Virus record (IMG/VR): IMGVR_UViG_3300035659_000010
Span: 1 to 63,190 of that record
Length of the DNA: 63,190 nucleotides
DNA from: a virus
Taxonomy: Duplodnaviria; Caudoviricetes
Reading direction: 5' to 3' (one strand)
The notes beneath the pieces are model-generated. The model saw only the letters and a list, made by a program, of their open reading frames with translations, had not been told where the DNA came from and made no database searches. The position numbers and the translations under genes were made by a program. Positions within the stretch are counted from its first letter, which is position 1. The number at the start of each line of letters is the position of its first letter. Below are positions 27,741 through 55,497 of this stretch, piece by piece.

Positions 27741-27983
27741 ATGTACTACATCCGATCCTTCGGAGATGACACGCCTTCGGTGCCGGTACAGCCTGCTCCG
27801 CACGAAGATCCCGCTTGGGTCGCCCCGGTACTGATCACCGGGCTGGTCGCACTCGTCGGGTTCGTTGTCTACTCGCAGTACAAGCTGTCCTCGCAGATCG
27901 TACAGAAGGAGGGGGCCCGCGGCCTCCTCGGTTACGAGGCGGGCAGGACCGGGCTCGGGATGCTGGAACGGGCGTCGAGGTAG
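27741..27983 (+). CDS. small membrane protein
   Basis: one TM segment; TAGCCT 6 nt upstream. Confidence 0.65.
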   Translation: MYYIRSFGDDTPSVPVQPAPHEDPAWVAPVLITGLVALVGFVVYSQYKLSSQIVQKEGARGLLGYEAGRTGLGMLERASR

Positions 27984-28015
27984 ACCGCCCCCGCGCCCCC
28001 TGGTAGCCTCCGGGC

Positions 28016-28213
28016 ATGTACCGTCACCAAGGGATGCTTCCGATCGGTGGTCTTGGCTGCTGCGGAGGGCATGTGCCGATGGGAGCCGACGAGACGCAGG
28101 CGAACGTCGGCGGCGGGGCGACTTCCTGGATCTCGGGCGCGCTCATCGTCGGACTCGCCGTCGTGATGTTCGCGATCGACACGAAGGACCCGCTGGGCCT
28201 GAAGAAGTCGTAA
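28016..28213 (+). CDS. small tail-anchored protein (GLG motif)
   Basis: IGGLG, PMGAD, C-terminal TM; TAGCCT 6 nt upstream. Confidence 0.65.
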   Translation: MYRHQGMLPIGGLGCCGGHVPMGADETQANVGGGATSWISGALIVGLAVVMFAIDTKDPLGLKKS

Positions 28214-28377
28214 GGAATGCGCGCCTTGAGCGGCCGGAATCCGGCCGGCAGCGAGCGCCAGAAGTAGGCGAACGCGGCCGAAAAAGCTGCCAGCATGTGC
28301 GATCCTTGAGTTAGGCGGCGGCGACGGCTAGAGTTCTTCGCGTAGGCGCTTCCCGACCCCTGCAACGGGATAGGTCC

Positions 28378-28932
28378 GTGCGCGCTCCGAAACAAACCTC
28401 AAGCCTCTCGGCGTTCCATGGACATCCCGACACGTTGCGGGCCATGGTCGCAGCAGTTCAGGGGCCGCGCGGGGAGCAGAGCCTGCTCGTGCGCCAGGTA
28501 ACGGAGAACGTCGTTCGGGGGGTGCAGCCGAAGGACTACCTCGGGGAGATCCTCGCCATCCGGTACTGGGTGACGGAGAAGGTCCGCTACACGAATGACC
28601 CCCTACACGTTGAGCTAGTGAGAGACGCACAAGCTCTCGTTGAGGAGATCCTCGCGCACGGCACGGTGACCGCGGACTGCGACGAGATCGCACTACTCAT
28701 TGCGTGCATGTGCTTGCAGGTCGGGCGCGTGGCGGAGTTCGTTGTCGCCGGCTTCGGTGAACCGGGCGCATACAGTCACGTGTTCGCGCGAGTGCAGGAG
28801 CCGCGCAGCGGTCAGTGGATCGTGGCCGACCCGGTCGCCGGCACCGACGAGCGGGGAATGCTCGATCGTGTGACCACTTTCTATGTCACGTCCTGTGACG
28901 AGCCGCCGGGAGCACCGAAGAGCATCACATGA
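28378..28932 (+). CDS. transglutaminase-like cysteine enzyme, putative maturation protease
   Basis: VRYTNDP, ADCDE (Cys), YSHVF (His), WIVADP (Asp). Confidence 0.85.
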   Translation: MRAPKQTSSLSAFHGHPDTLRAMVAAVQGPRGEQSLLVRQVTENVVRGVQPKDYLGEILAIRYWVTEKVRYTNDPLHVELVRDAQALVEEILAHGTVTADCDEIALLIACMCLQVGRVAEFVVAGFGEPGAYSHVFARVQEPRSGQWIVADPVAGTDERGMLDRVTTFYVTSCDEPPGAPKSIT

Positions 28933-29636
28933 GCAACATCCTCCGCAATCTTCGCCCGCCGTACCCGGTCTACTCCTCGACGCCGCTCTTCGGCGGGAGC
29001 TTGCCGAGCATCGACGAGATCGGTTCTCCGGACCTGCGCCCGAGCGGGCTCAACCCCTACTACGATCAGTACCGAGGAGCGCGCGGGCGCAACATCGCGG
29101 GCCTGGGAGGCAACAACATGACTGCAGACGTCGGCATCCAAAACTACCCGAACGAACTCGACGCGCTCGCAGAGGCGGACGATGTGCAGGGCAACGGGGT
29201 CTTCGATCCCGCCGGCACGCAGGGGAACATCCACCCGGACTACGGCGTGTTCGCGGACCACATGAACATGCCGGGGTACCTAGTCAGGGACCAGTTCTAC
29301 CAGCCCTCGCAGGTCATCGACGGGACCACGGGCAACCCCGTCATGTACGTGCCAGGCGGAGCGGTCGCGATCGACCAGTCGCAGCTGGACACGATTCGCG
29401 AGCGACAGCTTCTCTGGGAGCTTCCCCCCGGAGTGAGCCCGCAGGGGGTCACGTATCCCGAGGTGTCCGATGGCGGCGGTGACTGGATCCCGCAGGAGTT
29501 CGCGACTGCGATCAACGGGCTCGGTGCCGACGCGCCGTCCTCCGACGCGCAGAGGTCCAAGTTCGGCATCGTCGCCGGGTTCGCCATCGCGGGCGTCGCG
29601 ATCGGCATCTTCGCTGCGACCCTGATGAAGAAGTGA
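28929..29636 (+). CDS. tail-anchored putative virion membrane protein
   Basis: IAGLG, INGLGAD, C-terminal TM + KK. Confidence 0.75.
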   Translation: MSNILRNLRPPYPVYSSTPLFGGSLPSIDEIGSPDLRPSGLNPYYDQYRGARGRNIAGLGGNNMTADVGIQNYPNELDALAEADDVQGNGVFDPAGTQGNIHPDYGVFADHMNMPGYLVRDQFYQPSQVIDGTTGNPVMYVPGGAVAIDQSQLDTIRERQLLWELPPGVSPQGVTYPEVSDGGGDWIPQEFATAINGLGADAPSSDAQRSKFGIVAGFAIAGVAIGIFAATLMKK

Positions 29637-29643
29637 GGAGCAC

Positions 29644-30060
29644 ATGGCGAACGCAAGAAGCATCCTGCCTCACTTTGATGTATTCAGCGCGCCCGGCGTG
29701 AACGTGCCTCCGGGTACGCCGACGCAGGCCGCTGCTGGCGCAGGAGCGCTCGGCAAGTCGCGCTTCTTCGCGCTGAGCCCGGTGATGGCCGCGGTGAAGG
29801 GCCTCGGCGCGGACGATGTGGTGGTGCCTGGCGTTGCGGTCGCCGTGCCGTCGCAGCGCATGGGCGCGGGGGACATCGCGTGGACGATGGCGATCCTCGG
29901 CGTCGCGGGCGCGCTCTGCTACCAGGCAGGCAAGGCCATCGCGCCGTCTCGTCAGGACGCGACCACGTGGGGCTGGATTGGCGTGCCGGTCGGGCTCTTC
30001 ACCGGCGTTCTCGGGCTCGGCGTCATGGGCGTCGTAGCGAACCAGAAGAAGGGCGGCTGA
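29644..30060 (+). CDS. putative virion membrane protein (2 TM)
   Basis: VKGLGAD; two hydrophobic segments; KK tail. Confidence 0.7.
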   Translation: MANARSILPHFDVFSAPGVNVPPGTPTQAAAGAGALGKSRFFALSPVMAAVKGLGADDVVVPGVAVAVPSQRMGAGDIAWTMAILGVAGALCYQAGKAIAPSRQDATTWGWIGVPVGLFTGVLGLGVMGVVANQKKGG

Positions 30061-30063
30061 GAC

Positions 30064-30390
30064 ATGGCGTGCGCACCTTGCATGGCGGGCCTCGGGGCCT
30101 CGTTGAACACGTACAACGGACCGGTGCCTCCGGGCGTACCGAACCCGTACACGGTGATGCTGCACTCGTACCCGACGCGGTTCCACGGTCCGATCTACAC
30201 CCGCCCGCAGTTCGGGCTGGAGTGGGCGACGCGCCCGAACGACTTCGGGATCCAGGATGGGATGATGGGGCTCGGTGAAGATGAGCCGAGCGCTGCGCCT
30301 CCCGCGTGGAAGATCGCCGTCGGGCTCGGGCTCGCTGTTGGTGTCGTGATGCTCGCGATGAAGTACGGGGGACACGCTTCCCGCGTGTAG
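30064..30390 (+). CDS. tail-anchored putative virion protein
   Basis: MAGLG, MMGLG, C-terminal TM. Confidence 0.7.
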   Translation: MACAPCMAGLGASLNTYNGPVPPGVPNPYTVMLHSYPTRFHGPIYTRPQFGLEWATRPNDFGIQDGMMGLGEDEPSAAPPAWKIAVGLGLAVGVVMLAMKYGGHASRV

Positions 30391-30397
30391 CCACAGA

Positions 30398-30745
30398 ATG
30401 TACCGACGCGACAACCAGCAGATGCCGGAGAGCGAGGAGGGCGCGGCCTTCTTCCAGCCGATGACGTTCGAGTCGGAGATGGGCATGGTTCCGCCGCGCG
30501 TGATGGGGCTTCAGCCTGGGATGCTCACCGGCGGCTTCGCCGAAGCACAGGCGCGGGTCAACGCTCCGCGCGTCATGGGACTGAACCCGGACCTGCTCAC
30601 CCGCGGGTTCCCAGGGGCGCGCGGCATGGGAGCAGACGACGAGTCGGGCTATGTGGCCACGGTGGCCGCGATGAATCCCTGGGTCGTCGGCGGCGTCGCT
30701 GCAGCGCTCGGGTTCGGTGGCATGTGTCTATGGAGGAAGCGATGA
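30398..30745 (+). CDS. tail-anchored putative virion protein
   Basis: PRVMGLxP x2, RGMGAD, TM + RKR. Confidence 0.7.
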   Translation: MYRRDNQQMPESEEGAAFFQPMTFESEMGMVPPRVMGLQPGMLTGGFAEAQARVNAPRVMGLNPDLLTRGFPGARGMGADDESGYVATVAAMNPWVVGGVAAALGFGGMCLWRKR

Positions 30746-31884
30746 TCCAAGTTCACGTCCGCGACGGCATCTTCAACGGCGGCGGCTACGGCGGCGGCGT
30801 CTTCGACGGCACGACCATGGGCTTCGGCGGTCTCGGAGCCTCTGGCTGCGGCGAGTCGTCCGGGTGCGGCATCGCTGGCCTCACGGCACCGACGCAGTGG
30901 ACGATCGGGCCGAATGAGTGGCCGTCCACCGTCTCGCAGGCCGTCGTGAAGAGCACGAGCCGGTGGAAGGAGCTTCCGGCGGCGAATCCCGGCATGAAGC
31001 TCGTCACGATCAACGGGCAGGCGAACCTGTCGCCGTGGAAGGTCGGTCAGGTCGTGAACCTGCCGGCGTCCTGGGTGTCCGGGAGCGCGCCATCAGCGAC
31101 AGCTGCCGAGACAACCGGGTTCGCTGTCGACTACTCGGCGCTGCAGCCACAAGAAATAAAACCGTGGCAGATCGAAGTGAACACTCTGCTGGCGAAGGCG
31201 AACGCCACGCTGCTCGTGGTCAGCGGACTGATTGACGCGGCGACATGTGGAGCGGCGCACGCCTTCCTGTCCGCTACCCCTGCCCAGCAGGAGGCGTTTT
31301 CGGTCTACCACCCGAATGTCATGGAACTGGCACCACTGATCCTCGCGGCGTGCAAGATGCCGCCGGTCACCCCAGCTACTCCTTCAGGGCCATCGACGCC
31401 ATCGACGCCATCGACGCCATCGACGCCATCGACTGTGAACCCGTTCGTGGCGATCTGGGCCAGTGCCGGGCTCAACCTGGCGAGCGAGGCGGCGAGGCTC
31501 GGACACGAGCCGTGTTTCGTTCGCGCCTCGGACATGAGCAGCCCGGTGGTAGCCGAGATGCAGCGCACCATGAACGCGCTGCTGCAAAAGAACGACTTCA
31601 AACCGATCCCGGTGAACGGGAACTGGGATGGCCAGACCTGTGGGGCGCTCTTCGCCCTCACCGGCAAGTGGGACCCGGACATCAGCCTGTGTCAGATCGC
31701 GGGGCGCGATGACGTCGGCGGCTGGCAGGTGCCGGCGGGGTGCAAGGCTGGCGTCCAGCCGATTGCTCCGACGCCGGTACATCCGGACGATAAAAAGAAG
31801 ACTGGGAGCACGATGGCCTGGATGCTCGGCGGCCTCATCGGGGCTGCCGCGCTCGCTGGCATCTACGCCTCCAGGAAGAAGTGA
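30742..31884 (+). CDS. tail-anchored protein with LysM-like and peptidoglycan-binding-like domains
   Basis: FGGLG; WKELPAANP...KVGQVVNLP; VAEMQRTMN...VNGNWDGQTCGAL; TM + RKK. Confidence 0.7.
   Translation: MIQVHVRDGIFNGGGYGGGVFDGTTMGFGGLGASGCGESSGCGIAGLTAPTQWTIGPNEWPSTVSQAVVKSTSRWKELPAANPGMKLVTINGQANLSPWKVGQVVNLPASWVSGSAPSATAAETTGFAVDYSALQPQEIKPWQIEVNTLLAKANATLLVVSGLIDAATCGAAHAFLSATPAQQEAFSVYHPNVMELAPLILAACKMPPVTPATPSGPSTPSTPSTPSTPSTVNPFVAIWASAGLNLASEAARLGHEPCFVRASDMSSPVVAEMQRTMNALLQKNDFKPIPVNGNWDGQTCGALFALTGKWDPDISLCQIAGRDDVGGWQVPAGCKAGVQPIAPTPVHPDDKKKTGSTMAWMLGGLIGAAALAGIYASRKK
31390..31434. repeat. 9-bp tandem repeat CCATCGACG x5 encoding a Pro-Ser-Thr linker
   Basis: direct reading; last unit ends in T. 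Confidence 0.9.
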
Positions 31885-31891
31885 GGAGCAC

Positions 31892-32722
31892 ATGACCTAC
31901 GGACCTATCGCATACGAGGACTTGTCCCTGCTGAACGCGCAGTGGTCGCAGGCGCGACCGCCGATGGCTGGACTCGGCTCGACCTGGGGGCAGCACGAGT
32001 ACCGCGATCTCTCGTACCTGAACGCGCGGCTGCGTCCTGGCATGCCGGCACAGGTCGGGATGGGACCGGGCGGCATGGGAGGCGGAAGTCTCGGCGGAAA
32101 CAGCCTGGGGATCATGGTGGACGGAGAGGAGCGTCCCGGCGGCGTCGTCGTCGATGAATACGGGCTCGCGATCCCGTCCGCTAATCAGGAGTCCCCGACT
32201 CCGTCCGACGACATCTCACACGACTACACGCCGCCGGACTACGTTTCCGAGTACGTCGCGCCGACGACGAATACCGCGTCCACCGGACTTGCGCTCAAGT
32301 CTCCCGACTCGCGCGTCTCGGAGCTTCAGGGGCTGCTGAACCGAGTGCTCACGGCGAACGGGTACAATACCCTCGGTACGCCGGACGGGAAACTCGGCAA
32401 GGGGACATGCGGCGCGATCGACTGGTATCTGACTACCGGACACTCGCTGGCCTCTGCCAGTACCGCGCAGCAGATCCAGGCGAACCTCGCGTACACAGGC
32501 GCTCTGTACGACGCGGCTTGCGCAGGTAAGTCCCCGTGGACTTCTCCAAGCAAGCGTTCAACAGCGTCAACGACCAAGACCGATACCACTACAAACAAAA
32601 AATCGTCTACGGCCAGCGTGCTCGGCGGTGGCGGAGGCACGAACTGGATGCTGTACGGCGGCGCGGTCGCTGCGATCCTCGTTGGCGGCGCGCTCGTCTA
32701 CCGTGCGTCCAAGAAGAAGTGA
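31892..32722 (+). CDS. tail-anchored protein with PGBD-like domain
   Basis: MAGLG; VSELQGLLN...PDGKLGKGTCGAI; TM + KKK. Confidence 0.75.
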   Translation: MTYGPIAYEDLSLLNAQWSQARPPMAGLGSTWGQHEYRDLSYLNARLRPGMPAQVGMGPGGMGGGSLGGNSLGIMVDGEERPGGVVVDEYGLAIPSANQESPTPSDDISHDYTPPDYVSEYVAPTTNTASTGLALKSPDSRVSELQGLLNRVLTANGYNTLGTPDGKLGKGTCGAIDWYLTTGHSLASASTAQQIQANLAYTGALYDAACAGKSPWTSPSKRSTASTTKTDTTTNKKSSTASVLGGGGGTNWMLYGGAVAAILVGGALVYRASKKK

Positions 32723-32734
32723 ATCGAGGATCGC

Positions 32735-33376
32735 ATGATGCACTACGGCACGATGGCTGGACTCGGAAGCGGAAGCCTCTCCGGGAACTCACTCGGCATC
32801 GCCGGGCTCGGTACTACGTCGACCTGGATCGGCTGGTACAACCAGGCGAGCGCAGAGCAGCAGGACGAGTTCGATACCGCCGCGGAGGTCATCGACGCTG
32901 GCGGAGCAGTTCCAGACGACGTGTCGGATGCCGTGCGCGAAGCTCTCGTGATCTATAAGGCGGCCGGCGGGCGCGCCGATCTGGTGCCAGCGTCCCATGA
33001 CTTCACTGCCGCCCAAATCACAGCTGCACAGCAGTTCGTGAACACCGCGCTCGCGAAGGCCGGCTACAAGCAGATCGACGCCGACGGAAAGCTGGGTCCC
33101 GCGACATGCGGCGCGATTATTTGGTACCAGGAAAACGTCGACTCAAAGAGCGGCATTTCCTTCATGGCCGAATGCGCGACGCGGGAGATGACGAACCCGC
33201 CGCGCCCCCCAACGAAGCTCTCCTCTGGAGGTGAGGACGGAGGTGACGGAGGGGCTACGGTGCCGTCGGTCAAGCCAAAGGACCCCGCCCAGGCCAACAT
33301 GCTGTTGTATGGTGGCGCGCTTGCCGCCATCGTCGTCGGCGGCGCGCTCATCTACCGCGCATCCAAGAAGAGGTGA
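32735..33376 (+). CDS. tail-anchored protein with PGBD-like domain (paralog of previous)
   Basis: MAGLG, IAGLG; DADGKLGPATCGAI; near-identical tail YGGA.AAI.VGGAL.YRASKK. Confidence 0.75.
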   Translation: MMHYGTMAGLGSGSLSGNSLGIAGLGTTSTWIGWYNQASAEQQDEFDTAAEVIDAGGAVPDDVSDAVREALVIYKAAGGRADLVPASHDFTAAQITAAQQFVNTALAKAGYKQIDADGKLGPATCGAIIWYQENVDSKSGISFMAECATREMTNPPRPPTKLSSGGEDGGDGGATVPSVKPKDPAQANMLLYGGALAAIVVGGALIYRASKKR

Positions 33377-33382
33377 GAGCCC

Positions 33383-33748
33383 ATGCCGACGGCCATCCAG
33401 AGGGTCCAGCAGCGTCTCGGTGTCCAGCAGAGCGGACGCTGGGATAGTCCCACGGACGGAGCCATCCTCGCCTTCCAGCAGACGGCGAAGGGAGCGACGT
33501 ACGCGATGGATCCGCACGGACATCCGGATCCAGCGACGCTCGTGAACCTCGGGTACTACGCGCCAGCGGACATCTTCACGGACGAGTGGACGGCCTACCT
33601 CTCGGGAGGGGCGAAGCCGGGCCACTTCGGGCGCGACGTGCGAGCCTCGATCGATCAGGTGCCGCGGTGGGCGTGGGCAACGCTCGCCGTAGGTTTCGGC
33701 ATCTTCGCGTACATGGCGTACAAGACCGACAAGAAGCGGGGCAAGTAG
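33383..33748 (+). CDS. tail-anchored PGBD-like protein
   Basis: IQRVQQRLGV..SGRWDSPTDGAILAFQ; TM + KKRGK. Confidence 0.7.
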   Translation: MPTAIQRVQQRLGVQQSGRWDSPTDGAILAFQQTAKGATYAMDPHGHPDPATLVNLGYYAPADIFTDEWTAYLSGGAKPGHFGRDVRASIDQVPRWAWATLAVGFGIFAYMAYKTDKKRGK

Positions 33749-33751
33749 CTC

Positions 33752-34663
33752 GTGTACACCGAGAAGCTCGCCAACATGTACGCGGACCTCATGGGTCGCC
33801 CCAGCATCCCGTGGGACAAGCTGGAGGCGGACGGTCACGGGCTCTCCGCTGGCAAGTACGACTCCGCGTACCATGCGTACCTCGATGTTGCCTTCTTCGC
33901 CTTCCTCGATGTCGTCTACGGCGTAGACGGGAAGCCGGCGCTCAGTGAGGAGTTCCGAGGCAAGTACAAGACGATCCGCGCGAAGGACGCGCGGAGCGCT
34001 CTCGGTGAGATGATGACACTGATCGAGCAGGTAGGGGCCGACGTCTGGACCGCGGCCAAGAACGGCGACTGGGGCGATGCGGTGAACTTTCCGAGGACCC
34101 TGGCTATGGATTCGTTCGCGACGTTCGCTGCCAACGCCGTGAACAACTTCGCGATGCACAACTCCGGCGTCATGGAAGCGGCCATGCTCAACGGAAACAT
34201 CACCCCGGAAGAGGTGATGGCGCACGCGAACTCCACGGTGCAGACATTCGCCTCGTTCGTTGACCTGAACAAGTCCGGTGACCTGGATCAGTTCAAGAAG
34301 GAGCCGCCTGTCGCTGGGATGGGCATCGCTCCCATCGTCATTGGCGGCTGGGCTCTCGCGGCGCTCGGCATCGTCGTGGTGCTCGGCGCTTGCTACATGG
34401 TCTACGTCCTCAAGATCGCAGCCCCGATCCAGAACAAGGCCATCGAGTACTGCGACCAGCTGGCCAAGTCCGGCACCAACGAGGACAAGCGAACGTGCCT
34501 CGCCGCGCTCCAGAAGATCCAGGAGAACGGGAACGCCGATCTCCTCGGTTTCTTGGGCAAGGCGATCAGTCCGATCGTGTGGGTGGCTGCCGTCGGACTC
34601 GGCTTGTACGTGGCGGCCATGGTCCTGCCAGGGATGCTCGCGCGTCGGAGGATGACGGCATGA
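33752..34663 (+). CDS. membrane protein (2 TM)
   Basis: VAGMG precedes first TM; C-terminal TM + RRR. Confidence 0.7.
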   Translation: MYTEKLANMYADLMGRPSIPWDKLEADGHGLSAGKYDSAYHAYLDVAFFAFLDVVYGVDGKPALSEEFRGKYKTIRAKDARSALGEMMTLIEQVGADVWTAAKNGDWGDAVNFPRTLAMDSFATFAANAVNNFAMHNSGVMEAAMLNGNITPEEVMAHANSTVQTFASFVDLNKSGDLDQFKKEPPVAGMGIAPIVIGGWALAALGIVVVLGACYMVYVLKIAAPIQNKAIEYCDQLAKSGTNEDKRTCLAALQKIQENGNADLLGFLGKAISPIVWVAAVGLGLYVAAMVLPGMLARRRMTA

Positions 34664-35001
34664 TCTACTCCCGATGGAAGCCGGACACGGGCGGGTTCGA
34701 GTACCTGGAGGTGCCAGGCAGCCACAACATCAATGACGATCTGCCGACGCCGGAGCTTCGGCCGGCGACGAAGATCGGTGTGCCGTCCATCGAAGCAGGG
34801 CGTCCTGTGCCTCCCGGAGCGCAGGTGGTCGGGGAGGGTGATGCCGCTGTAGGCGTCATCGCGCCAGTCGATCGGGCGCGCATCGTCCGCAGGACACGTT
34901 CCCTGGCCGGGCTCGACGGTGGCCCGTCATCGACGGTACTCTGGTTCGCTGCGGGAGCCGCCGGTGTGGCGCTGCTCTGGTACGTCGCAAAGAAGAGGTA
35001 G
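34660..35001 (+). CDS. tail-anchored protein
   Basis: ATGA overlap; LAGLD; TM + KKR. Confidence 0.7.
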   Translation: MIYSRWKPDTGGFEYLEVPGSHNINDDLPTPELRPATKIGVPSIEAGRPVPPGAQVVGEGDAAVGVIAPVDRARIVRRTRSLAGLDGGPSSTVLWFAAGAAGVALLWYVAKKR

Positions 35002-35008
35002 CTCGTTC

Positions 35009-45161: not shown

Positions 45162-45169
45162 TCTCGCGC

Positions 45170-45302: not shown

Positions 45303-45323
45303 TCCCAACCGGAGGCACATATC

Positions 45324-46295: not shown

Positions 46296-46305
46296 GGAAG
46301 GCGAC

Positions 46306-48133: not shown

Positions 48134-48921
48134 CGTACAGAAGCAGTTCGACACATGCTCCGATGAGGGGCCTTGGCGCTCCTCTGCCTCTGTTGGACCC
48201 GGCCGCGATCGGGTATCTGATGAAGGCGTTTGTCAACGCTGGCGGCTGCACGCCGGCATTCCAGGCCAACCTGAAGGCTCAGGGTTGCTTGAACACGCAG
48301 GCCGTCCAGTGGCTCGGTTCGTGTTACCTCGGAAAGACCCCGCCCGGCGTGAACGATTGGGAGTTCGCGGCGGCGTGCCTCGCACTGGGCAAGTGCGGCG
48401 GGTTCGACATGATGGGGTGTCCTGGCGACGCCGACGCGATGATGGCGCAGGTCCCGTCGTGCCTCACTCCGGAGATGGCGGGCGAGTTCAGCCCCATCGT
48501 CGACTACTGCAGAGCGAACCCGACGTTCCAGGGTCCGAACAAGACTTTCAACGCTGCCTGCTGGAGCATGTCTCGCTACCCGACTCTGTTCCAGAAGGTG
48601 ATGAACACGCCGCTGTGCGCGGCTGCGATGCCGCCGCCGGTCACGGCTCCCGCGACGAATACGACGCCGCCGCTCGATACGACCTCGCAGGTGACGTACG
48701 ACTCGTACGCTCCGGATTCGAGCGCGACCACGGTACTGACGAACGACACCGTCGTGCCAGGATCCGACTGCGGTTCGCGAGGCCCGCACTTCGCCATCGA
48801 CCTGTCGACTGGAGAGTGTGTCGAGCACAAGCTAGCCATGTCGCCCGCCACGATGGCCATGTTCGGCGTCGGCGGGATCCTGGCGCTAGGTCTCGGGTAC
48901 ATGTTGCTGAAGAAGAAGTGA
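48130..48921 (+). CDS. Cys-rich tail-anchored protein
   Basis: MRGLG; many Cys; TM + KKK. Confidence 0.72.
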   Translation: MTYRSSSTHAPMRGLGAPLPLLDPAAIGYLMKAFVNAGGCTPAFQANLKAQGCLNTQAVQWLGSCYLGKTPPGVNDWEFAAACLALGKCGGFDMMGCPGDADAMMAQVPSCLTPEMAGEFSPIVDYCRANPTFQGPNKTFNAACWSMSRYPTLFQKVMNTPLCAAAMPPPVTAPATNTTPPLDTTSQVTYDSYAPDSSATTVLTNDTVVPGSDCGSRGPHFAIDLSTGECVEHKLAMSPATMAMFGVGGILALGLGYMLLKKK

Positions 48922-48924
48922 GCC

Positions 48925-49275
48925 ATGTCAACAGCCGATTACCCAACAGGAATACAAAGCGGCACCGGGCCTCCCCCCGTCATGGACACGTCATCGTCCA
49001 TGCCAGAAACTTCTGTAGTGCAGAAGTACTCGATCCAGATCATCAACGGGCTGGAGGCGGTACGCGCAGACGCTGTGGACGGACAAGGCAACGTCCAGGG
49101 TACGTCCTACGTGTATCCAGGCGATCCGTCCTACGCGAAGCTCTACACGACCGCGACGGGGCACGCGCCCACGCAGGGCTCTCTGGAGTTCTTCGGTCTG
49201 AGCAAGCCGGTCGTCTACGGAGTGGCAGCGGTGGTGGCGCTCGGGCTCGGCTACCTGCTCCTCAGAAAGAAGTGA
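48925..49275 (+). CDS. tail-anchored protein
   Basis: TM + RKK; tail ALGLGY like previous gene. Confidence 0.7.
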   Translation: MSTADYPTGIQSGTGPPPVMDTSSSMPETSVVQKYSIQIINGLEAVRADAVDGQGNVQGTSYVYPGDPSYAKLYTTATGHAPTQGSLEFFGLSKPVVYGVAAVVALGLGYLLLRKK

Positions 49276-49278
49276 GCC

Positions 49279-50004
49279 ATGTACCGCAGCATGACAGGGC
49301 TCGGGCTTCTGGAGTGGACCGGCACCGGCGTGAGGTCTGTCGGGACGCCGACCTGTGTCACGCAGGGTGAACTGGCCGAGGCGCAAGCGAAGTGCCCGCC
49401 GGAGTACCACAAGAGGCTCTCCGGCCTCGGGCTGACACCGACGGGTCCGATGTCGGGTCGACTCAGTCCCTTCTCGGCGTGCGCGGTGGCGGCGCTTCCG
49501 GTGTGTCCAGCGCCGAAGTGCATTGACCAGTACACGGCCGGATTGATCGCGGCGTGCGTCGCCGGCACCTCTACAAACCCGGACCTCGACTGCTCCTCGC
49601 TCTACGCCTACGCGCTGTCGCAGCTGCCGTACTGTCCCGGCGCTTCCGGGCTGCAGCCGGTGCCTAGATGTCTCTCTCCAGAACTGCTCGCGTTGCGCGA
49701 CTACTGCGCCAGCACGAACGGCAATGGAGCGAACAAGGGGATGAACGCTGTGTGCTGGGCAGCGATGCACGACCCGAGCTACTGGGCTCAGGCCATGGCT
49801 GCGAAGCCTTGCTACGAGCAAGCGTACGTGCCGCCTGTGACGTCCGCTCCGGAATCGACTCCGCAGCAGCTGCCCGCGGAGCAGCCGACAGTGGCGTACG
49901 TGCCGGAGAAGCAGGAAGCGTCGATGGCTGGCACGTGGGGGATCCTCGCTCTCCTCGCGGTGGCGGGCGGCGGCTATTACATGTACCGCCGGAACAAGAG
50001 GTGA
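49279..50004 (+). CDS. Cys-rich tail-anchored protein (paralog of 48130)
   Basis: MTGLG, LSGLG; VPRCLSPE..DYC..NKGMNAVCW; TM + RRNKR. Confidence 0.72.
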   Translation: MYRSMTGLGLLEWTGTGVRSVGTPTCVTQGELAEAQAKCPPEYHKRLSGLGLTPTGPMSGRLSPFSACAVAALPVCPAPKCIDQYTAGLIAACVAGTSTNPDLDCSSLYAYALSQLPYCPGASGLQPVPRCLSPELLALRDYCASTNGNGANKGMNAVCWAAMHDPSYWAQAMAAKPCYEQAYVPPVTSAPESTPQQLPAEQPTVAYVPEKQEASMAGTWGILALLAVAGGGYYMYRRNKR

Positions 50005-50007
50005 TCC

Positions 50008-50202
50008 GTGGCGACAAAAAGCAAAAAACCCAGGTCCACGACCGCAAAGAATCTCGACGCAATCTACGATGCTCTGTACGACGATCTGGACAGGCTCTGG
50101 AACGCGAGCGCGATCAGCGCCACAGAATACGATCGCCTGTACGGCAAGCTGAATGCGGGGATGAACAAATTGAGCGAAGTCGTCTCGGAGCTACACGGAT
50201 GA
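50008..50202 (+). CDS. small helical protein
   Basis: GAGGT RBS; DRLWN. Confidence 0.55.
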   Translation: MATKSKKPRSTTAKNLDAIYDALYDDLDRLWNASAISATEYDRLYGKLNAGMNKLSEVVSELHG

Positions 50203-50224
50203 ACATGTACCGGAGGAACAAGCA

Positions 50225-50431
50225 ATGAAACGCAGGAAGCACAGCGCCTACAATGCAATCGGCGCGAATTATCAGAAGGCGTTCGATCGTCTCTGGAACA
50301 TGGTTGGCGATCTGGAAGCAGATGGTCGGCTCACTGGCGCGAAAGCCAACGCCCTGTTCTTCTCGCTCGACAAGAACGCGAATCAGTTCAACGACCTGAT
50401 CAACAAAGTCGCGAAGGCGGCTAAGGCATGA
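50225..50431 (+). CDS. small helical protein
   Basis: GGAGG RBS; DRLWN. Confidence 0.6.
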   Translation: MKRRKHSAYNAIGANYQKAFDRLWNMVGDLEADGRLTGAKANALFFSLDKNANQFNDLINKVAKAAKA

Positions 50432-50658
50432 ACATGAACCTTGTCGGCATCGCAGGAGTTCCTGCGCAGGACATGTCCGGCAAGCTCGTCGGCGTGGGCG
50501 GCTGCGGCTGCAACGCTGGCATGGGAGCGTACGCGCGTCCGGTCGGTGAGACCTCCCCGACGCCAGAGCAGGCGCAGGCGTTCCGCTGGATAGCGGTCGG
50601 CCTGCTCGGCGTGGCGGCCATCGGTCTCTGGTGGATGGAGAGCCGGAGGCACGCTTGA
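50428..50658 (+). CDS. small tail-anchored protein
   Basis: GCGCNAGMGA; TM + RR. Confidence 0.65.
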   Translation: MNMNLVGIAGVPAQDMSGKLVGVGGCGCNAGMGAYARPVGETSPTPEQAQAFRWIAVGLLGVAAIGLWWMESRRHA

Positions 50659-50879
50659 TGGACAACATGCGCGCAGCAGCCGCGGCGGCGGACGCTCTCG
50701 GCCCGACGATGGACAACGTAGGCGGCCCTCTCGGCATCGTCGGCAGGGCCATCGGCCTCGGGGGTGACGAGATCGAGGCGGGCGTGCCCGGCTGGGCGTG
50801 GCTCGGCATCGGTGTCGTTGCTGGCGGGATCGCCATGTACTTCCTGCGGCCGCGGGTCGAGGCTTTCGTCGGGGACTGA
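50658..50879 (+). CDS. small tail-anchored protein
   Basis: AIGLG; TM + RPR. Confidence 0.65.
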   Translation: MDNMRAAAAAADALGPTMDNVGGPLGIVGRAIGLGGDEIEAGVPGWAWLGIGVVAGGIAMYFLRPRVEAFVGD

Positions 50880-50915
50880 GCCGGGGTACATTCCCTGGGA
50901 AGGATCGAGAATCAC

Positions 50916-52109
50916 ATGTCGCTAGGCGCATACTTCGGAAGCACCAAGATCACTCAGGGCGCTGGCGGCTTGGGCCAGGACGGACCGCTGCAGGCGTACG
51001 CGGACGGCATCGTTGGCGGCAACGCCCCGAGCGCCGAGAACCCAGGGCCACTGTTCGCGTACGCGGACGGCTCGCTCGGGGCTGCGCCGCTCCAGGCGTT
51101 CGCCGACGGCGTCGTCGGTGGCTCCTCGGCGAACCCAGACATGCCCGGTTCGTTGTTCGCCTACGAGGACGGCTCCCTCGGTCCGCTCTCGCGCGGGGCT
51201 CCGTACGCGGACGCTCCGGATGGCGGCGTCTTCGGTGGTGGTGGCGGTGGCGGATCTGCCGACGGTGGCAGCATCGAGATGGCCGATCATCCGGCGCCGG
51301 TGCTGGCCTACCAGGACGGCGTGTTCGGTGGGCGCGGCACATGCGGGCTCGGCGCTGTCGGCCCGCTCCGCGCGTACTCGGACGGCTCGCTCGGCAGCGA
51401 CGACGATGCCGGCGGGACTCCGATCTCCGTCTTCGGTCAAGGGATCTTTGGCGAGCACGGCGAGGGCATGAACCGGTTCGGTCCACTGCAGTCGTTCCAC
51501 GACGGATCGCTCGGCGCTGTCGGCGCGACCGCTCCCGGACTTGATCTCGGTGACGAACAGACGCTCATGGAATTGAAAGTGCTGCTCGGGATGAGCAGCG
51601 CGTTCGCGATGAGCCCGGAAGGTCAGAAGACCTATACGCCGGAGTGGTACCGAACCGGCATCTGGGAGCCGTCGGCGAGCGCGCTCTGGCAGTCGGTGGT
51701 GAATGCTCCCGAGCCGTACGGCCGCATGTTCGTGGGTCAGAAAGTGAGCGACGAGGAAGCGTCCCAGACCTGGCCGAACGGGACCGGGATCTTCATCATG
51801 TTCTCGACGCTGATGACGCCGGACGCTGGCTTCGCTGCCAGAAAAAAGGCGATGGAGGAGACTCTCCCGACGCTCTCGGGATGGTTCTCTGGCGCGACGG
51901 CCTTCGTGCAGGCGAAGACACAGTCGTGCAAGGAAGGGCAGACGTGCCCCTTTCCTTCGTTGCCTGTCCTGGGGCCGTACCTCTCTCTCACCGACAAGGT
52001 GAAGGGAGCGCACGCTGGGGGCTCTTCCAAGGCGAGCATGATGGCGTGGTACGGGCTCGGGGCTGCGGGCCTGCTCGGGCTCGCGCTCGTTTTTCGGAAG
52101 AAGCGCTGA
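50916..52109 (+). CDS. tail-anchored protein with N-terminal GPLxAYxDGxxG repeats
   Basis: about 7 repeats; TM + RKKR. Confidence 0.75.
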   Translation: MSLGAYFGSTKITQGAGGLGQDGPLQAYADGIVGGNAPSAENPGPLFAYADGSLGAAPLQAFADGVVGGSSANPDMPGSLFAYEDGSLGPLSRGAPYADAPDGGVFGGGGGGGSADGGSIEMADHPAPVLAYQDGVFGGRGTCGLGAVGPLRAYSDGSLGSDDDAGGTPISVFGQGIFGEHGEGMNRFGPLQSFHDGSLGAVGATAPGLDLGDEQTLMELKVLLGMSSAFAMSPEGQKTYTPEWYRTGIWEPSASALWQSVVNAPEPYGRMFVGQKVSDEEASQTWPNGTGIFIMFSTLMTPDAGFAARKKAMEETLPTLSGWFSGATAFVQAKTQSCKEGQTCPFPSLPVLGPYLSLTDKVKGAHAGGSSKASMMAWYGLGAAGLLGLALVFRKKR

Positions 52110-52119
52110 AGGAGATCAC

Positions 52120-52530
52120 ATGTACCGATCACAAGGAGCGATGGGCGAGTATTTCGCGGCACAGTCCGGCATGGGACAGTACGAGCAGGCTGCTGCCGGG
52201 ATGGGCGAGTACTTCGCGGCACAGGGCCTCGGTGGCCCGCTCGTGAACTGGGCGCGACAGGAAGAGGCCGAGGCCGGTCACGCAGGCATCTTCGGGCTCG
52301 GGGAGTACTTCGGAGCGAACGGTCTCGGCGAGATGCCTCCGCTGGACGCTGAGCAGAAGAAGAGCCTCGCGATGTACGCCGGTGGCGGTTTGGCCGTCGG
52401 TCTGCTCGGCGCGTACCTGATGAAGAAGACCAAGGCCAAGGGCCTCCTAGTCGGTGGCGGTCTGGGCACTGCGATCGGGCTCGGTGCGTTCTGGGCCCTC
52501 AAGATGCCGAACACGCTCTCGGCGACGTGA
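52120..52530 (+). CDS. membrane protein with GMGEYF repeats
   Basis: AAGGAG RBS; repeats shared with core protein C-terminus; 2 TM. Confidence 0.75.
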   Translation: MYRSQGAMGEYFAAQSGMGQYEQAAAGMGEYFAAQGLGGPLVNWARQEEAEAGHAGIFGLGEYFGANGLGEMPPLDAEQKKSLAMYAGGGLAVGLLGAYLMKKTKAKGLLVGGGLGTAIGLGAFWALKMPNTLSAT

Positions 52531-52832
52531 GCCATCCCCACTGGGAGGTCCCGATGATGTTCGCTGGAATGGGAGACGTCTCTGCGGAAACACCGGTGCC
52601 GGTGGTGCCGGGACCTATCGCTCCGCCAGCGCCGCCTCCGTCGCGTTCGGGCGCGCTCGCGCTCGACCTCGACGTCGTCGCTTTTTTTGCTGTCCCGGCG
52701 GCCATCGGTGCGGGAATTGGACGGATGGTTGGTAGCAAGCGCTACCTACGGAACGCTGCAATCGGGGCAGCGGTTCCTGTCGGGCTGGTCGCGTCTTATT
52801 TGGCGCTCGTCGCAATCACCGGCAAGACCTGA
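52527..52832 (+). CDS. small membrane protein (2 TM)
   Basis: FAGMGD; two hydrophobic segments. Confidence 0.6.
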   Translation: MSHPHWEVPMMFAGMGDVSAETPVPVVPGPIAPPAPPPSRSGALALDLDVVAFFAVPAAIGAGIGRMVGSKRYLRNAAIGAAVPVGLVASYLALVAITGKT

Positions 52833-52840
52833 AGCAGAGC

Positions 52841-53536
52841 ATGGACATCTTCGAGCGCCTCCGTCGTGCCACCGGGGACATCCCGTGGGACACGTTCGTG
52901 TCCGTCATGGCACAGAACCTCGGCGCGAACGGCGCGGCCGCGCAGGAGATCGTCGCTCAGCTGAAGGAGTGGGGCTCGCACCTCACGAAGAACGCGCTCT
53001 CGAAGTGGAGCGTGTCCGTCATGTCCCCGGTCGCGTGCGACTCGCCGGACGTGAGCAGCGGACGTCCGCAGACGTGTCCGTCGTTCGCGGTCGTGAAGTG
53101 CGACGTGTGCGGCCGCCCGTGCTGTCTGGCACATGCCCGCGTGGACTACATGGGCGACGCGATCTGCGAGGTCTGTATCGGCGAGGCGAAGGTGCGTCGC
53201 CGGACATCGTCTTGGGCTGATGGCGGTCCGACGCCGTACGCGCGCCCGCACGCTGGAGAGCCACGCGCTGAGCGCAAGGGTCGGGCTGAGCCCCCTCCGC
53301 CAGCGCAGAGCGCTCCGGGGGTTATGTCGCGCGCCGAAGCACTCCGCGTGCTCAAGCTGCCGAAGAACTCGACCTGGCTGCAGACGAAGACGCAGTACCG
53401 GAAGCTCGTCTTGAAGCACAACGCGGACCGCCCGCAGAGTGATGCGGAGCGCGAGAGGAACACCGAGCGCCTGAAGAAGATCAACGCGGCGTACTCGGTG
53501 CTCAAGGGACACTACGAGCAGAAGGCGGCGGCATGA
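52841..53536 (+). CDS. Zn-finger plus C-terminal J-like domain protein (HPD degenerate)
   Basis: CDVCGRPCCLAH..CEVC; EALRVLKL..YRKLVLKHNADR..LKKINAAYSVL. Confidence 0.8.
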   Translation: MDIFERLRRATGDIPWDTFVSVMAQNLGANGAAAQEIVAQLKEWGSHLTKNALSKWSVSVMSPVACDSPDVSSGRPQTCPSFAVVKCDVCGRPCCLAHARVDYMGDAICEVCIGEAKVRRRTSSWADGGPTPYARPHAGEPRAERKGRAEPPPPAQSAPGVMSRAEALRVLKLPKNSTWLQTKTQYRKLVLKHNADRPQSDAERERNTERLKKINAAYSVLKGHYEQKAAA

Positions 53537-54117
53537 ACACTCTCGATTCTGTGCGTATTCTTGTTACTGAAGAAGAGGCCCATCCCGGCGGCGGCAGACA
53601 TGCGTTCATCTCGTTCTACGGCGGGCTCAAGCTGAGTATCGTCGCCGGTCCCGATCAGTACTCGGCGCCAAGCCGCGCCCTTCCGGCTCTGGTGTTGTAC
53701 GACAGGGTGGAAGTGGCGATCGGCGGTCCTGGTAACAATTTCATCAGGCCGACTGAGGATAACCTACTGGCACATGGGCTGACGGCGCTCGTGCCGTACG
53801 CTGTCCAGAATGACGATGTGATGGCGTACGTGCCGATGGAGGCCGTACTGAGCGCGATCAGTGGAGCGTCGATGCTCAGCGAGGCGTTGGGGAATATGGA
53901 ACGCAACGCCCCGCGCCTCACAGGCCGATGCGCGCTCGCTAGAATCCCACGCATCCTCATTGAGCGTGCCGCCGAGAAGTCCGGTCTGCCTGTCTCGGAA
54001 ATCGAGTCCATGATCGTGGACAACGAAGTGATCGCGGAGAACGTAGAGGCGGGTCGCGAGATCACGCAACGCGATCTCAGCAACATGGTGGAAGCATATC
54101 TGGAGGGTCCGTTTTGA
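53533..54117 (+). CDS. hypothetical protein
   Basis: ATGA overlap. Confidence 0.6.
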   Translation: MNTLDSVRILVTEEEAHPGGGRHAFISFYGGLKLSIVAGPDQYSAPSRALPALVLYDRVEVAIGGPGNNFIRPTEDNLLAHGLTALVPYAVQNDDVMAYVPMEAVLSAISGASMLSEALGNMERNAPRLTGRCALARIPRILIERAAEKSGLPVSEIESMIVDNEVIAENVEAGREITQRDLSNMVEAYLEGPF

Positions 54118-54500
54118 GCTACCACGGCGTCGGTGCAGGCCCCGGACCGGTGAAGACCTACAAGGTCGACGCGCCGTTTCCGTGGGGCGTGAACACGGAG
54201 ATCAAGATCCCCGTGCAGCAGATGGCTGACGACTCGTACGCCGCGGTCTTGCCGCACATCCTGGAACTGGAAGGCAGGCTCATCGCCGACGTCGAGGACG
54301 AGATGGCCCGCGTCGTTCCAGACATGGTGCAACGGGTCATCAACGAGAACGTCCGCCCCGAGCTTGCGAAGCAGATGGAGATCGCTTTCGCGAAGGTGGA
54401 CATCGCCAAGGACGACGCGATCAAGGCCGCGGTCGGGATCGCTGCCGGGCTCGCCCTGGCCATCGGGCTCTCGGCCTGGTGGGTCAAGAAGGGCGGCTAG
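54114..54500 (+). CDS. tail-anchored protein
   Basis: YHGVGAGPG; TM + KK. Confidence 0.7.
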   Translation: MSYHGVGAGPGPVKTYKVDAPFPWGVNTEIKIPVQQMADDSYAAVLPHILELEGRLIADVEDEMARVVPDMVQRVINENVRPELAKQMEIAFAKVDIAKDDAIKAAVGIAAGLALAIGLSAWWVKKGG

Positions 54501-54503
54501 GGC

Positions 54504-54734
54504 ATGTACCGCGCGGTGGGAGCCGGTCCCGGCAAGACGATCACGTACCTCGTGGACCTCCCGCAGCCGTGGGGGAGGGACACCCAGGTGACCATTCCGG
54601 TCGACGCCCTGGTGGGTGATGCTCTGGTCGCCGCTCAGCCGAGCATGGACGCCGCGGTCATGCGGGGCGTCGTGGGCGTGGCCGCTGCCATGGTCCTGGC
54701 CGTCGGGCTCGGGGCCTGGTTGCTCCGCAGGTGA
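54504..54734 (+). CDS. tail-anchored protein (short paralog of 54114)
   Basis: VGAGPG..TY.VD.P.PWG shared; TM + RR. Confidence 0.7.
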   Translation: MYRAVGAGPGKTITYLVDLPQPWGRDTQVTIPVDALVGDALVAAQPSMDAAVMRGVVGVAAAMVLAVGLGAWLLRR

Positions 54735-54766
54735 CGCCGGGGGCTCGGCCAGGTAGACTCCGGCAC

Positions 54767-54949
54767 ATGCTGGCACCGAGGACCGAGTATTGGGACGAGC
54801 GGCTCGGTCGCAGCGTTGGCCCGCTCGATCCAGCGTACGATGCAGAACGCTTCGGGGCGCTCGTCGCGAGAGGAAGCTCCGACACCGCGACGACCGGGCG
54901 AGACACGGTCCCATGCCCGCCGCCACTTCCTGATGGAGACACACCATGA
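54767..54949 (+). CDS. small hypothetical protein
   Basis: TAGACT 7 nt before ATG; ATGA overlap. Confidence 0.45.
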   Translation: MLAPRTEYWDERLGRSVGPLDPAYDAERFGALVARGSSDTATTGRDTVPCPPPLPDGDTP

Positions 54950-55497
54950 GCTTCTGGAACGTACCTGATTCCGACTACGTCGAGCTTGCCGTGGCGACGC
55001 CCGGCTGGCAGACCGCGCCCGTGCCCGGCTGGGGCATCAACCCTCTGCGTGCGGGACCGATGCGCGTGGGCATCGGGCTCGGACAGAGCATCCCCGGAGA
55101 GGACGACTTCCTCCCGCACTGGGCAGCGCTCGGGGCGGATCCGGAGGCGGCGTACAAGGAGACGTCGTGGGGCGTCGTCGCCGGAGCCGCCGCGCTCGGT
55201 ATCGGGCTCGGGCTCCTCTTCGGCTACGGCTGGTGGGGCGGCAAGAGGCTCACGCCGAACAAGAGTCGTCGTCGCTCCAGACGGAAAGGCGGCAAGATGC
55301 GGAGGAACGGTTACATCTCGTCTCAAGGATGGGGAGTGGTGTCCGCCGGCCAGTTCGATCCGGTCACAGGAGAAGCGTACCGGGTGCCGCACGTCCGAGC
55401 CAGGTCGAGGGCGAACGATTGGTCGGCACCGGCGTATCCGGACACGAAGGCCGGGCTGCGGCGCCTTATCAACGACGCGAACGCCGGCCGATTCTGA
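54946..55497 (+). CDS. membrane protein with basic C-terminal extension
   Basis: IGLGQ; TM; LTPNKSRRR, MRRNG. Confidence 0.7.
   Translation: MSFWNVPDSDYVELAVATPGWQTAPVPGWGINPLRAGPMRVGIGLGQSIPGEDDFLPHWAALGADPEAAYKETSWGVVAGAAALGIGLGLLFGYGWWGGKRLTPNKSRRRSRRKGGKMRRNGYISSQGWGVVSAGQFDPVTGEAYRVPHVRARSRANDWSAPAYPDTKAGLRRLINDANAGRF

Follow-up and report, generated by a model that had tools for sequence, protein, structure and literature searches.

The 63,190-nucleotide virus record IMGVR_UViG_3300035659_000010, analysed here at its full length and referred to as the window, carries at positions 27741-58872 a run of late genes that very probably forms a virion membrane module. Most of the proteins encoded there end in a hydrophobic tail anchor, and a short motif, G-[LM]-G in its simplest form, recurs among them and is almost certainly a functional signal. 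Close to the head of the module, at 28378-28932, lies a gene for a cysteine enzyme of the transglutaminase fold. Sequence comparisons lead us to a tentative reading, held at somewhat less than even confidence, in which this enzyme would cleave G-hydrophobic-G sites in virion precursors. The broader proposal is that an undescribed, widespread lineage (genomes of about 110-180 kb) matures its particles by a transglutaminase-fold protease cutting more than 20 precursors, and this we consider rather unlikely, if worth stating.

The enrichment of the motif is specific to the late proteins. Copies were counted outside helices, and expectations were taken from within-segment shuffles. The gene model, guided by third-position G+C content (GC3) and refined by hand, comprises 42 plus-strand late genes at 27741-58872, with the other 39 proteins as the comparison set; proteins are named below by the coordinates of their genes. 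In the late proteins, G[LM]G is present in 42 copies in 23 of the 42 proteins, where 10.7 ± 3.2 copies are expected (z 9.7; 0/1000 shuffles), and the longer form [MLIFV]xG[LM]G is present 19 times against 2.5 expected (0/1000 shuffles). The corresponding values in the comparison set are 9 against 6.2 (170/1000) and 5 against 1.5 (15/1000). The control patterns G[IV]G, GAG, G[LM]A, A[LM]G and GG[LM]/[LM]GG show no enrichment in the late proteins, among which GLG is the top-ranked tripeptide (31 copies versus 7.5 expected, z 8.6; rank about 2955 in the other proteins). Glycine makes up 10.8% of the late proteins versus 7.5% of the others, but the shuffles, the controls and the tripeptide rank indicate that Gly-richness is not the cause. 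An earlier sequence-only reading of this DNA had drawn attention to the motif through a set of pentapeptides, all of which are found in the late proteins. It had also named two outcomes that would speak against a signal, an origin in Gly-rich composition and an equal frequency in non-structural genes; the excess survives the within-segment shuffles, and the comparison set shows no such surplus of G[LM]G. Paralogy does not account for the motif either, because it is carried by 21 of 38 late clusters without detectable similarity, including two capsid candidates and a K/R-rich protein.

The motif is also placed non-randomly. Sixteen of the 42 copies fall within the first 30 residues, a stretch that accounts for 15% of all residues outside helices (binomial p 2e-4), and a second group lies 8-25 residues ahead of the anchor, often as G[LM]G-[AG]-D-[DE], in agreement with the placement near the N-terminus or before a transmembrane segment that had been described. 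The N-termini are distinctive in a further respect, in that Tyr or Phe occupies residues 2-4 (MYR, MSY, MTY, MSF) in 21 of 42 late proteins versus 4 of 39 others (Fisher p 1e-4). In its wider form the consensus reads [AMILV]-[AS]-G-[LM]-G-[AQED]-[DY]-[PFE], flanked by a 2-2.6-fold excess of Arg at -5 to -3, a hydrophobic residue at -2 and a 4-fold excess of Gln at +1 (27 of 161 instances). Across five syntenic relatives, G-[LMIVF]-G is kept at 100 of 144 aligned motif positions, and the identity of motif residues is 0.73 versus 0.56 for their flanks (Wilcoxon p 0.006). Six more distant relatives, with 42-59% identity in the capsid candidate, show an excess in four cases (z 3.1-5.1) and none in two (z 0.7 and 1.0); the middle residue broadens there to I, V or F, and the N-termini MSYVGLG, MNYTGIG and MYAGLG recur.

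Tail anchoring was assigned where the last hydrophobic window (17 residues, Kyte-Doolittle mean of at least 1.5) ends 12 or fewer residues from the C-terminus. This identifies 26 of the 42 late proteins, close to the figure of about 25 given before, with residual tails of 0-11 residues and a net charge of 0 to +4, mostly +2 to +4. Two others (33383-33748 and 35572-37662) are anchored by eye and lie below the threshold, and several of the 26 have additional weaker hydrophobic windows. A single one of the other 39 proteins is tail-anchored, and its gene belongs to a minus-strand island that interrupts the module. Four of the 42 late proteins (27741, 56089, 57401 and 58564) have a hydrophobic 10-mer among their first 40 residues, and a pattern scan found no lipobox or Tat motif in any late protein. 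The reported lack of N-terminal signals thus holds in the hydropathy, lipobox and Tat scans, the multi-helix protein 58564 being the exception. The K/R tails run counter to the positive-inside rule for a topology with the N-terminus in the cytoplasm, and some ectodomains are Cys-rich or resemble peptidoglycan-binding domains; some also have Pro/Thr/Ser linkers. We suggest, tentatively, that the K/R tails may face the packaged DNA. In Escherichia coli, the tail-anchored proteins DjlC and Flk depend on DnaK, the signal recognition particle (SRP), FtsY and YidC, according to one report (PMC6794478).

The protein encoded at 28378-28932 had been proposed to be a transglutaminase-type enzyme with a Cys-His-Asp centre, and profile, triad and fold bear this out. 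It matches PF01841 at 25.1 bits (cut-off 23; E 2.3e-5) with the whole profile covered, many homologues also match PF01841, and the triad Cys101-His134-Asp151 is invariant in 31 sequences that are 54-82% identical to the window protein. An AlphaFold2 (AF2) model with a predicted local distance difference test score (pLDDT) of 85 compares with 3kd4, a putative Parabacteroides protease, at Z 13.1 (149 residues aligned, root-mean-square deviation 2.9), with TG3, FXIII and TG2 at Z 11.4-12.8, with PNGase at Z about 10 and with LapG at Z 9.7. Foldseek lists the pseudomurein endoisopeptidases PeiP and PeiW, including the enzyme of phage psiM2. Against the PDB, a sequence search with the enzyme gave 0 matches and a profile search only noise (E > 0.5). 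The model settles the transglutaminase fold, and the neighbours of that fold span four candidate reactions (protease, transamidase, amidase and glycanase). As side observations, the enzyme family has a conserved N-terminal peptide, L-S-G-F-x-G-x-P-D-T (28378-28440), with an invariant F13-x-G15, and public gene calls start at Met23, downstream of this peptide.

The enzyme is 73-79% identical in five of five close relatives and is found in five of five more distant records. The co-occurrence check that had been proposed therefore has an answer, since the gene accompanies the capsid-candidate gene in all ten related viral records, and its conservation is on par with that of the capsid candidates. 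The enzyme has 569 homologues versus 668 for the 323-residue capsid candidate (which has no Pfam domain and is named only 'hypothetical protein'), which suggests that it is a core gene of the lineage; a full profile search gave 3672 cluster representatives. Tail-anchored forms of the enzyme make up 18 of the best 150 representatives, and in 11 of these 18 the linker that joins the catalytic domain to the anchor contains G-[LMIVF]-G, where 5.5 would be expected (15/2000 shuffles), a feature that self-release would need. A cultured homologue is gp34 of SSIP-1 (Salisaeta icosahedral phage 1; tblastn E 3e-6; hhalign probability 97.7%, E 1.6e-12). This protein is itself tail-anchored and is annotated 'structural protein', so that a homologue of the enzyme is recorded as a virion component. 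The best predicted viral structure match of the enzyme is an unnamed 304-residue entry, which we infer from its equal length to be gp34.

Three late proteins, 44346, 45324 and 46306, are more conserved than any other (65-87% identity in relatives) and are candidate capsid proteins. The motif appears as SGLG at residues 23-26 of 44346 and as IAGLG at residues 12-16 of 46306. The AF2 model of 45324-46295 is poor (pLDDT 53); its beta region compares best with the HCIV-1 capsid chain (Z 7.2), P23-77 VP17 (Z 6.9), STIV and SPV1, where a Z of about 7 is background, and the modelled likeness to jelly-roll capsid proteins is a lead only. An Atlas lead from the same protein to PRD1 P2/P3 scored only 0.76-0.77, an Atlas search with it returned just unnamed viral clusters, and tblastn of 45249-46295 against a phage collection gave no match. 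Hits of the capsid-candidate profile to PDB sequences were rejected as coiled-coil noise from the N-terminal helix. The K/R-rich protein at 41481-44198 is a candidate for a membrane-tied, genome-condensing core protein. Its residues 301-570 are 40% K+R and are followed by a hydrophobic middle and by a C-terminal 220 residues with repeats of the form AAG[LMV]G(E/Q)(Y/F)(F), of which each of six genomes has 6-7 copies; comparable arrays in four more distant relatives read AAAG[IFMV]G, with E/Q and often Y/F after it. The true start of this protein is probably about 28 codons downstream, as judged from orthologue alignment.

The scheme that we put forward for these features is as follows. The virus would be a double-stranded DNA bacterial virus, apparently tailless and with a lipid membrane in the particle. 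Its tail-anchored proteins would be made in the cytoplasm without a signal peptide and inserted post-translationally, probably aided by host DnaK, for whose recruitment the viral J-domain protein at 52841-53536 is a candidate. The approximately 26 anchored proteins would constitute the protein set of the virion membrane, with their short K/R tails on the genome side. The motif [AMILV]-[AS]-G-[LM]-G, in which I, V or F could take the middle position in distant relatives, would tag particle-bound proteins, often after an aromatic at residue 2-4 or in the linker ahead of the anchor, and would serve as both recognition and cleavage site of 28378-28932 acting as a maturation protease. The tasks of this enzyme would be to remove targeting peptides from N-termini, to release some ectodomains from the anchor and to dismantle repeat proteins of a scaffold-like kind. 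Active sites of the clan-CA type are expected to prefer Leu or Met at P2, and in the enzyme a papain-like centre would take Leu or Met into S2 and cut after the second Gly. Membrane insertion, topology, cleavage and the identity of the cleaving enzyme are the steps that we infer, and what ties enzyme to motif is adjacency, co-conservation and a modest motif excess in the membrane-anchored enzyme forms. Within the maturation-protease reading, the system may be a convergent copy of adenovirus logic in which the usual packaging ATPase is seemingly absent and DNA is condensed by a membrane-anchored basic protein.

The adenovirus protease (AVP, adenain) has the general consensus (M/I/L)-x-G-x-G, and the motif described here shares this Gly-flanked hydrophobic-x-G-x-G form. 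More specifically, [AMILV]-x-G-[LM]-G matches the cleavage site of adenovirus pVI, IVGL|G, as given in one paper (PMC4246237). In adenovirus, many virion precursors, basic genome-condensing core proteins among them, have such sites close to one or other terminus, and the scaffold L1 52/55k is cut at many sites, so that motif arrays do not exclude cleavage. In both systems the enzyme is a cysteine enzyme, and the closest cultured homologue of the one described here, SSIP-1 gp34, carries a virion structural annotation. In contrast to AVP, the enzyme has a transglutaminase fold, the host is bacterial, the candidate substrates are mostly tail-anchored, and neither a double jelly-roll capsid protein nor an FtsK-type packaging ATPase was recognised here (by pattern scan only for the ATPase). 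The adenain profile PF00770 had no match in five of five records (the window and four complete relatives), but the control genomes gave no match either. The sequence-only reading had claimed adenovirus-like maturation; what stands of this is a motif that is late-specific, conserved, N-terminally biased and pVI-like in form, together with an enzyme that has a transglutaminase fold and an invariant triad and is not adenain.

Other maturation systems resemble this one in part. In T4, for gp21 with the internal proteins, and in phiKZ, for gp175, a short conserved N-terminal peptide, with a simple cleavage motif at its end, targets many head proteins to the procapsid and is then removed. These prohead proteases are serine enzymes of the herpesvirus-assemblin type found in HK97-fold tailed phages, and their motifs end in Glu. 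Unlike in such systems, neither a TerL nor an HK97 capsid profile matched in any of the same five records. LapG is likewise a transglutaminase-fold Cys-His-Asp enzyme, as the Z of its model comparison indicates, and makes one specific cut at a small-residue motif that frees a protein from its anchor. It differs in being periplasmic and calcium-dependent and in having one giant adhesin as its target, and LapG gave no sequence-level match to 28378-28932.

Membrane-containing phages offer a further comparison. SSIP-1, according to reviews, is tailless with an internal membrane and has two major capsid protein types with a possible single jelly roll. In addition to gp34, it resembles the window in having eight tail-anchored late proteins and four proteins whose first 35 residues contain G[LM]G. 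It differs in that gp34 is membrane-anchored while the window enzyme is soluble, and in a genome about one third the size of those of the complete relatives. When six window profiles (45324, the enzyme, 44346, 46306, 35009 and 28929) were compared by hhalign with 24 SSIP-1 proteins, only the enzyme-gp34 pair stood out and the rest stayed at or below 6.3%; a tblastn search of SSIP-1 with every window protein likewise matched the enzyme alone. PRD1 and P23-77 resemble the window in having small membrane proteins in a row by the capsid genes of an internal-membrane phage. Unlike the window, PRD1 has 0 tail-anchored proteins and 1 motif versus 3.5 expected, P23-77 has 3 tail-anchored proteins and 7 motifs versus 4.7 (not significant), and both have an annotated packaging ATPase. 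Among these three phages the enzyme is found in SSIP-1 only, which has the eight anchors and a marginal motif excess, and the controls thus fit the proposed picture.

Several observations weigh against cleavage by this enzyme. Proteases share the list of structures nearest to it with true transglutaminases, PNGase and pseudomurein endoisopeptidases of phages, so that a role as lysin or cross-linker is a serious possibility. The linker excess in the anchored enzymes is not significant for the strict G[LM]G form (5 versus 2.5, 188/2000), and the excess in SSIP-1 is weaker than here, marginal (8 versus 4.0, 25/500) and with an N-terminal bias. One distant relative (G007), with an enzyme match at E 1.3e-92, lacks an excess of G[LM]G in the surroundings of its capsid gene (7 versus 5.5) and uses G[IV]G variants. 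Among 100 full-length homologues of 46306, 42 have G[LM]G in the first 45 residues, and the second Gly is often swapped. Many motifs stand at residues 4-9, so that cleavage would release very short peptides; conservation extends to the sequence upstream of the motif, and no processed terminus has been seen. The 6-7 copies within 220 residues of the K/R-rich protein, with the 4-5 in 52120, fit multivalent binding at least equally. Positions at residues 4-9 and arrays alike would suit an alternative in which the motif is an uncut docking hook, the single Leu or Met side chain between its two glycines fitting into a pocket of the capsid lattice or of a shared adaptor. Such a hook would bind membrane proteins, the genome-binding core protein and capsid N-terminal arms alike and thereby tie genome, membrane and shell together. 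Arrays kept across the lineage (those of the K/R-rich protein in six genomes, 7 related repeats in 50916 and those of 52120) agree with it, as do the conserved upstream peptides, the motif that two capsid candidates carry on their N-terminal arms, and the location of copies either at the very N-terminus or at a distance of 8-25 residues from the anchor, the right reach for a membrane-shell link. Yet no binding partner has been identified, and docking leaves unexplained the core Cys-His-Asp enzyme at the head of the module, the motif in the linker of the anchored enzymes themselves and the close match to a known protease site. We regard docking as unlikely in absolute terms and as nearly as likely as cleavage.

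A separate question is whether the enzyme is related to the motif at all. It may instead be carried in the virion as an endopeptidase that attacks the cell wall during entry, remove glycans in the manner of PNGase, or cross-link the particle as a true transglutaminase, its adjacency reflecting late operon order only; we hold this, which is compatible with docking and with the handling role discussed next, to be a doubtful but serious possibility. It is in keeping with the structural likeness to TG3, FXIII and TG2 (Z about 12), to PNGase and to PeiP/PeiW. Other membrane phages carry a lysin in the virion, PRD1 with P7 and P23-77 with ORF29, the latter annotated as virion-associated lysozyme; no second lysin candidate was recognised in the late proteins scanned, and a weak peptidoglycan-binding match lies 4 kb downstream. 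Conservation at the level of a capsid protein nevertheless gives the impression of being high for a lysin, the anchored enzyme forms carry the motif in their linker, and no Gln/Lys pattern is tied to the motif except the Gln at +1. Improbable, in our estimate, is a biogenesis handle, made up of the motif and the N-terminal aromatic and recognised either by the J-domain protein of the virus with host DnaK or by some other targeting factor, which would keep tail-anchored proteins soluble and direct them to the membrane patch of particle formation. A J-domain protein conserved mid-module, a Cpn10 gene nearby, the dependence of DjlC and Flk on host factors noted above, and the Arg and hydrophobic residues flanking the motif would suit such a handle, but G-L-G is a poor Hsp70 binding core, motif arrays are hard to fit as targeting signals, and the motif is also present on the anchorless 44346 and 46306 and in the C-terminal region of the core protein. 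That the proteins are ordinary exported surface proteins with a sortase- or exosortase-type C-terminal sorting signal is very improbable. A C-terminal helix followed by K/R is the architecture of such signals, and Cys-rich ectodomains (48130, 49279) or Pro/Thr/Ser linkers are frequent in exported proteins; against this, scans of the anchored proteins for signal peptides, lipoboxes and Tat motifs were negative, no motif is common to the 15 residues that precede the helix, and the genes form part of a viral structural module whose synteny extends over ten viral records. Least credible of all is an artefact of Gly/Ala/Leu-rich composition in 65% G+C DNA, of paralogy or of wrong gene calls. The late proteins are indeed Gly-rich, include four paralogous pairs and come from a hand-made gene model, but the shuffles, the five control patterns without excess, the rank of GLG, the 21 unrelated clusters and the conservation of orthologues above their flanks all oppose this, and the starts are backed by orthologue alignment and by sites resembling ribosome-binding sites (GGAG, GAGG or AGGA upstream of 27 of 42 late starts versus 12.5% of random positions).

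Membrane-containing tailless phages are few in culture, and we know of no maturation protease described in a non-tailed prokaryotic virus and of no report of precursor processing in these phages. The lineage considered here, uncultivated and with hundreds of metagenome homologues, presents a proteome-wide assembly signal tied to a conserved cysteine enzyme. Should the motif be cleaved, protease-driven maturation would be older, or more often reinvented, among non-tailed viruses than thought, and the connection that has been supposed between membrane viruses of bacteria and adenovirus-like viruses would be open to direct test. Should it be a docking hook, it would represent a simple general means of joining capsid shell, lipid vesicle and genome. 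Either way, about 26 tail-anchored proteins in one operon form an unusual natural set for the study of bacterial tail-anchor insertion, and SSIP-1, which is cultured on Salisaeta sp. SP9-1 and shares the enzyme, offers a test system.

The window is an entire virus contig without terminal repeats and with a CheckV completeness of 46%. Its G+C content is 61-69%, the plus strand holds almost every gene, and no tRNA genes were found. The left part encodes the bacterial-virus replication and recombination proteins YqaJ, RecT, a replisome organiser, DnaB, RuvC and ThyX, and the right end Cpn10 and glycosyltransferases; YqaJ, RecT, DnaB, RuvC, ThyX and Cpn10 support the bacterial type of virus assumed before. 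Eleven IMG/VR contigs are matched by the 323-residue capsid candidate, and four complete relatives with direct terminal repeats measure 138, 136, 112 and 144 kb. The module is intact and collinear in five close relatives. A Walker A pattern scan of the window gave two matches, of which DnaB is the sole known ATPase and the other lies inside the Cys-rich anchored protein 48130; in one complete relative (G004), the plausible P-loops from the same kind of scan are an AAA+ protein, DnaB and a loader-like protein. A literature search turned up no description of the lineage or the motif. Host assignment from bins of metagenome-assembled genomes (MAGs) was rejected as binning noise, as the bins range over Pseudomonadota, Pirellulales, Pseudomonadales, Burkholderiales and even Methanomicrobiales; one relative in a MAG bin (L037-L041) is a 122.7-kb contig and probably a whole viral genome. 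Recoding of TGA in distant relatives was also considered and dropped, because the tblastn alignments of the enzyme show no internal stop.

The layout of the module is collected in Table 1. Its extent had been given as 27741-55497, and this block is present as described, although the real end lies further on, at 58872. Pfam returned nothing for most ectodomains of the late proteins, and PHROGs nothing for the three capsid candidates, the enzyme, 35009, 35572, 53533 and 23766.

Table 1. Genes of the late module and of the island within it, with coordinates in the window.
Feature	Position	Strand	Details
Two small membrane proteins	27741..28213	+	27741-27983, mid helix; 28016-28213, tail-anchored, IGGLG at residue 10
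Soluble transglutaminase-fold enzyme, 184 residues	28378..28932	+	Stop overlaps start of next gene
Eleven consecutive C-terminally anchored proteins	28929..35001	+	Starts 28929, 29644, 30064, 30398, 30742, 31892, 32735, 33383, 33752, 34660; G[LM]G mostly near N-terminus or 8-25 residues ahead of helix; 32735 with weak peptidoglycan-binding match (PG_binding_1, E 9e-4, under cut-off)
Soluble conserved protein, 188 residues	35009..35575	+	60-76% identity in relatives; no match in Pfam or PHROG
Four C-terminally anchored proteins	35572..39318	+	35572-37662 (696 residues, LSGLG at residue 17, helix below threshold); 37659-37829; 37826-38932 (FSGLG at residue 3); 38932-39318
Insert outside the conserved module	39307..41419	-	Metallophosphoesterase, PF00149; family-1 glycosyltransferase, PF13528, E 4e-84; small two-helix protein
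K/R-rich protein, about 870-905 residues	41481..44198	+	Motif arrays at C-terminus
Three capsid candidates	44346..47208	+	44346-45161; 45324-46295; 46306-47208
Nine C-terminally anchored proteins	47360..52832	+	Starts 47360, 48130, 48925, 49279, 50428, 50658, 50916, 52120, 52554; 48130 and 49279 Cys-rich paralogues, 12 Cys apiece; 50916 with 7 copies of AYxDGS[LV]G; 52120 with 4-5 copies of G[LM]G(E/Q)YF
Small soluble pair within 47360..52832	50008-50202, 50225-50431	+	Alike by eye, both with DRLWN; orthologues absent in 5 close relatives
Cys-rich N-terminal domain and C-terminal J-domain	52841..53536	+	PF00226, 28.9 bits (cut-off 27.8); kept in 5/5 close relatives, 42-65% identity
Three tail-anchored proteins and one with a mid helix	54114..56075	+	54114-54500 and 54504-54734, tail-anchored paralogues (MSYHGVGAGPG, MYRAVGAGPG); 54946-55497, helix mid-protein and basic tail; 55800-56075, tail-anchored
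Module end	56089..58872	+	Two paralogues of 388-430 residues, then three-helix membrane protein 58564

The minus-strand island resembles a moron acquired by insertion: tblastn gave no match to it in G004, a complete relative, and G+C falls to 0.608 at 40-42 kb. At the end of the module, 56089-57381 and 57401-58567 share 62% identity over their first approximately 149 residues (MSRYG...) and are unrelated beyond. The C-terminus of 56089 matches phrog_20787, 'virion structural protein', and the versions in relatives are longer (521-918 residues); the pair may be exchangeable receptor-binding proteins.

Directly upstream of the module, 24988-27582 encodes an 864-residue protein with a long coiled coil and Gln/Pro-rich stretches, 49% identical to its counterpart in G004. 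Pfam gives no family and PHROGs only a weak coiled-coil 'tail protein' match, and the protein may be a scaffold or a length ruler. Two early neighbours, 12711-13448 and 13445-15283, contain a polyvalent-protein ADP-ribosyltransferase domain (PF18760), the second also a GNAT acetyltransferase, and may modify host proteins. In G004, a 1249-residue protein (L011:13588-17337) has tyrosine-recombinase domains (PF00589, E 7e-17), so that members of the lineage may integrate, and an 856-residue protein has a GDSL lipase domain. Finally, the window encodes a Cpn10/GroES at 59608-59946 (PF00166, E 8e-26), which together with the J-domain protein makes two co-chaperones in one phage-like genome.

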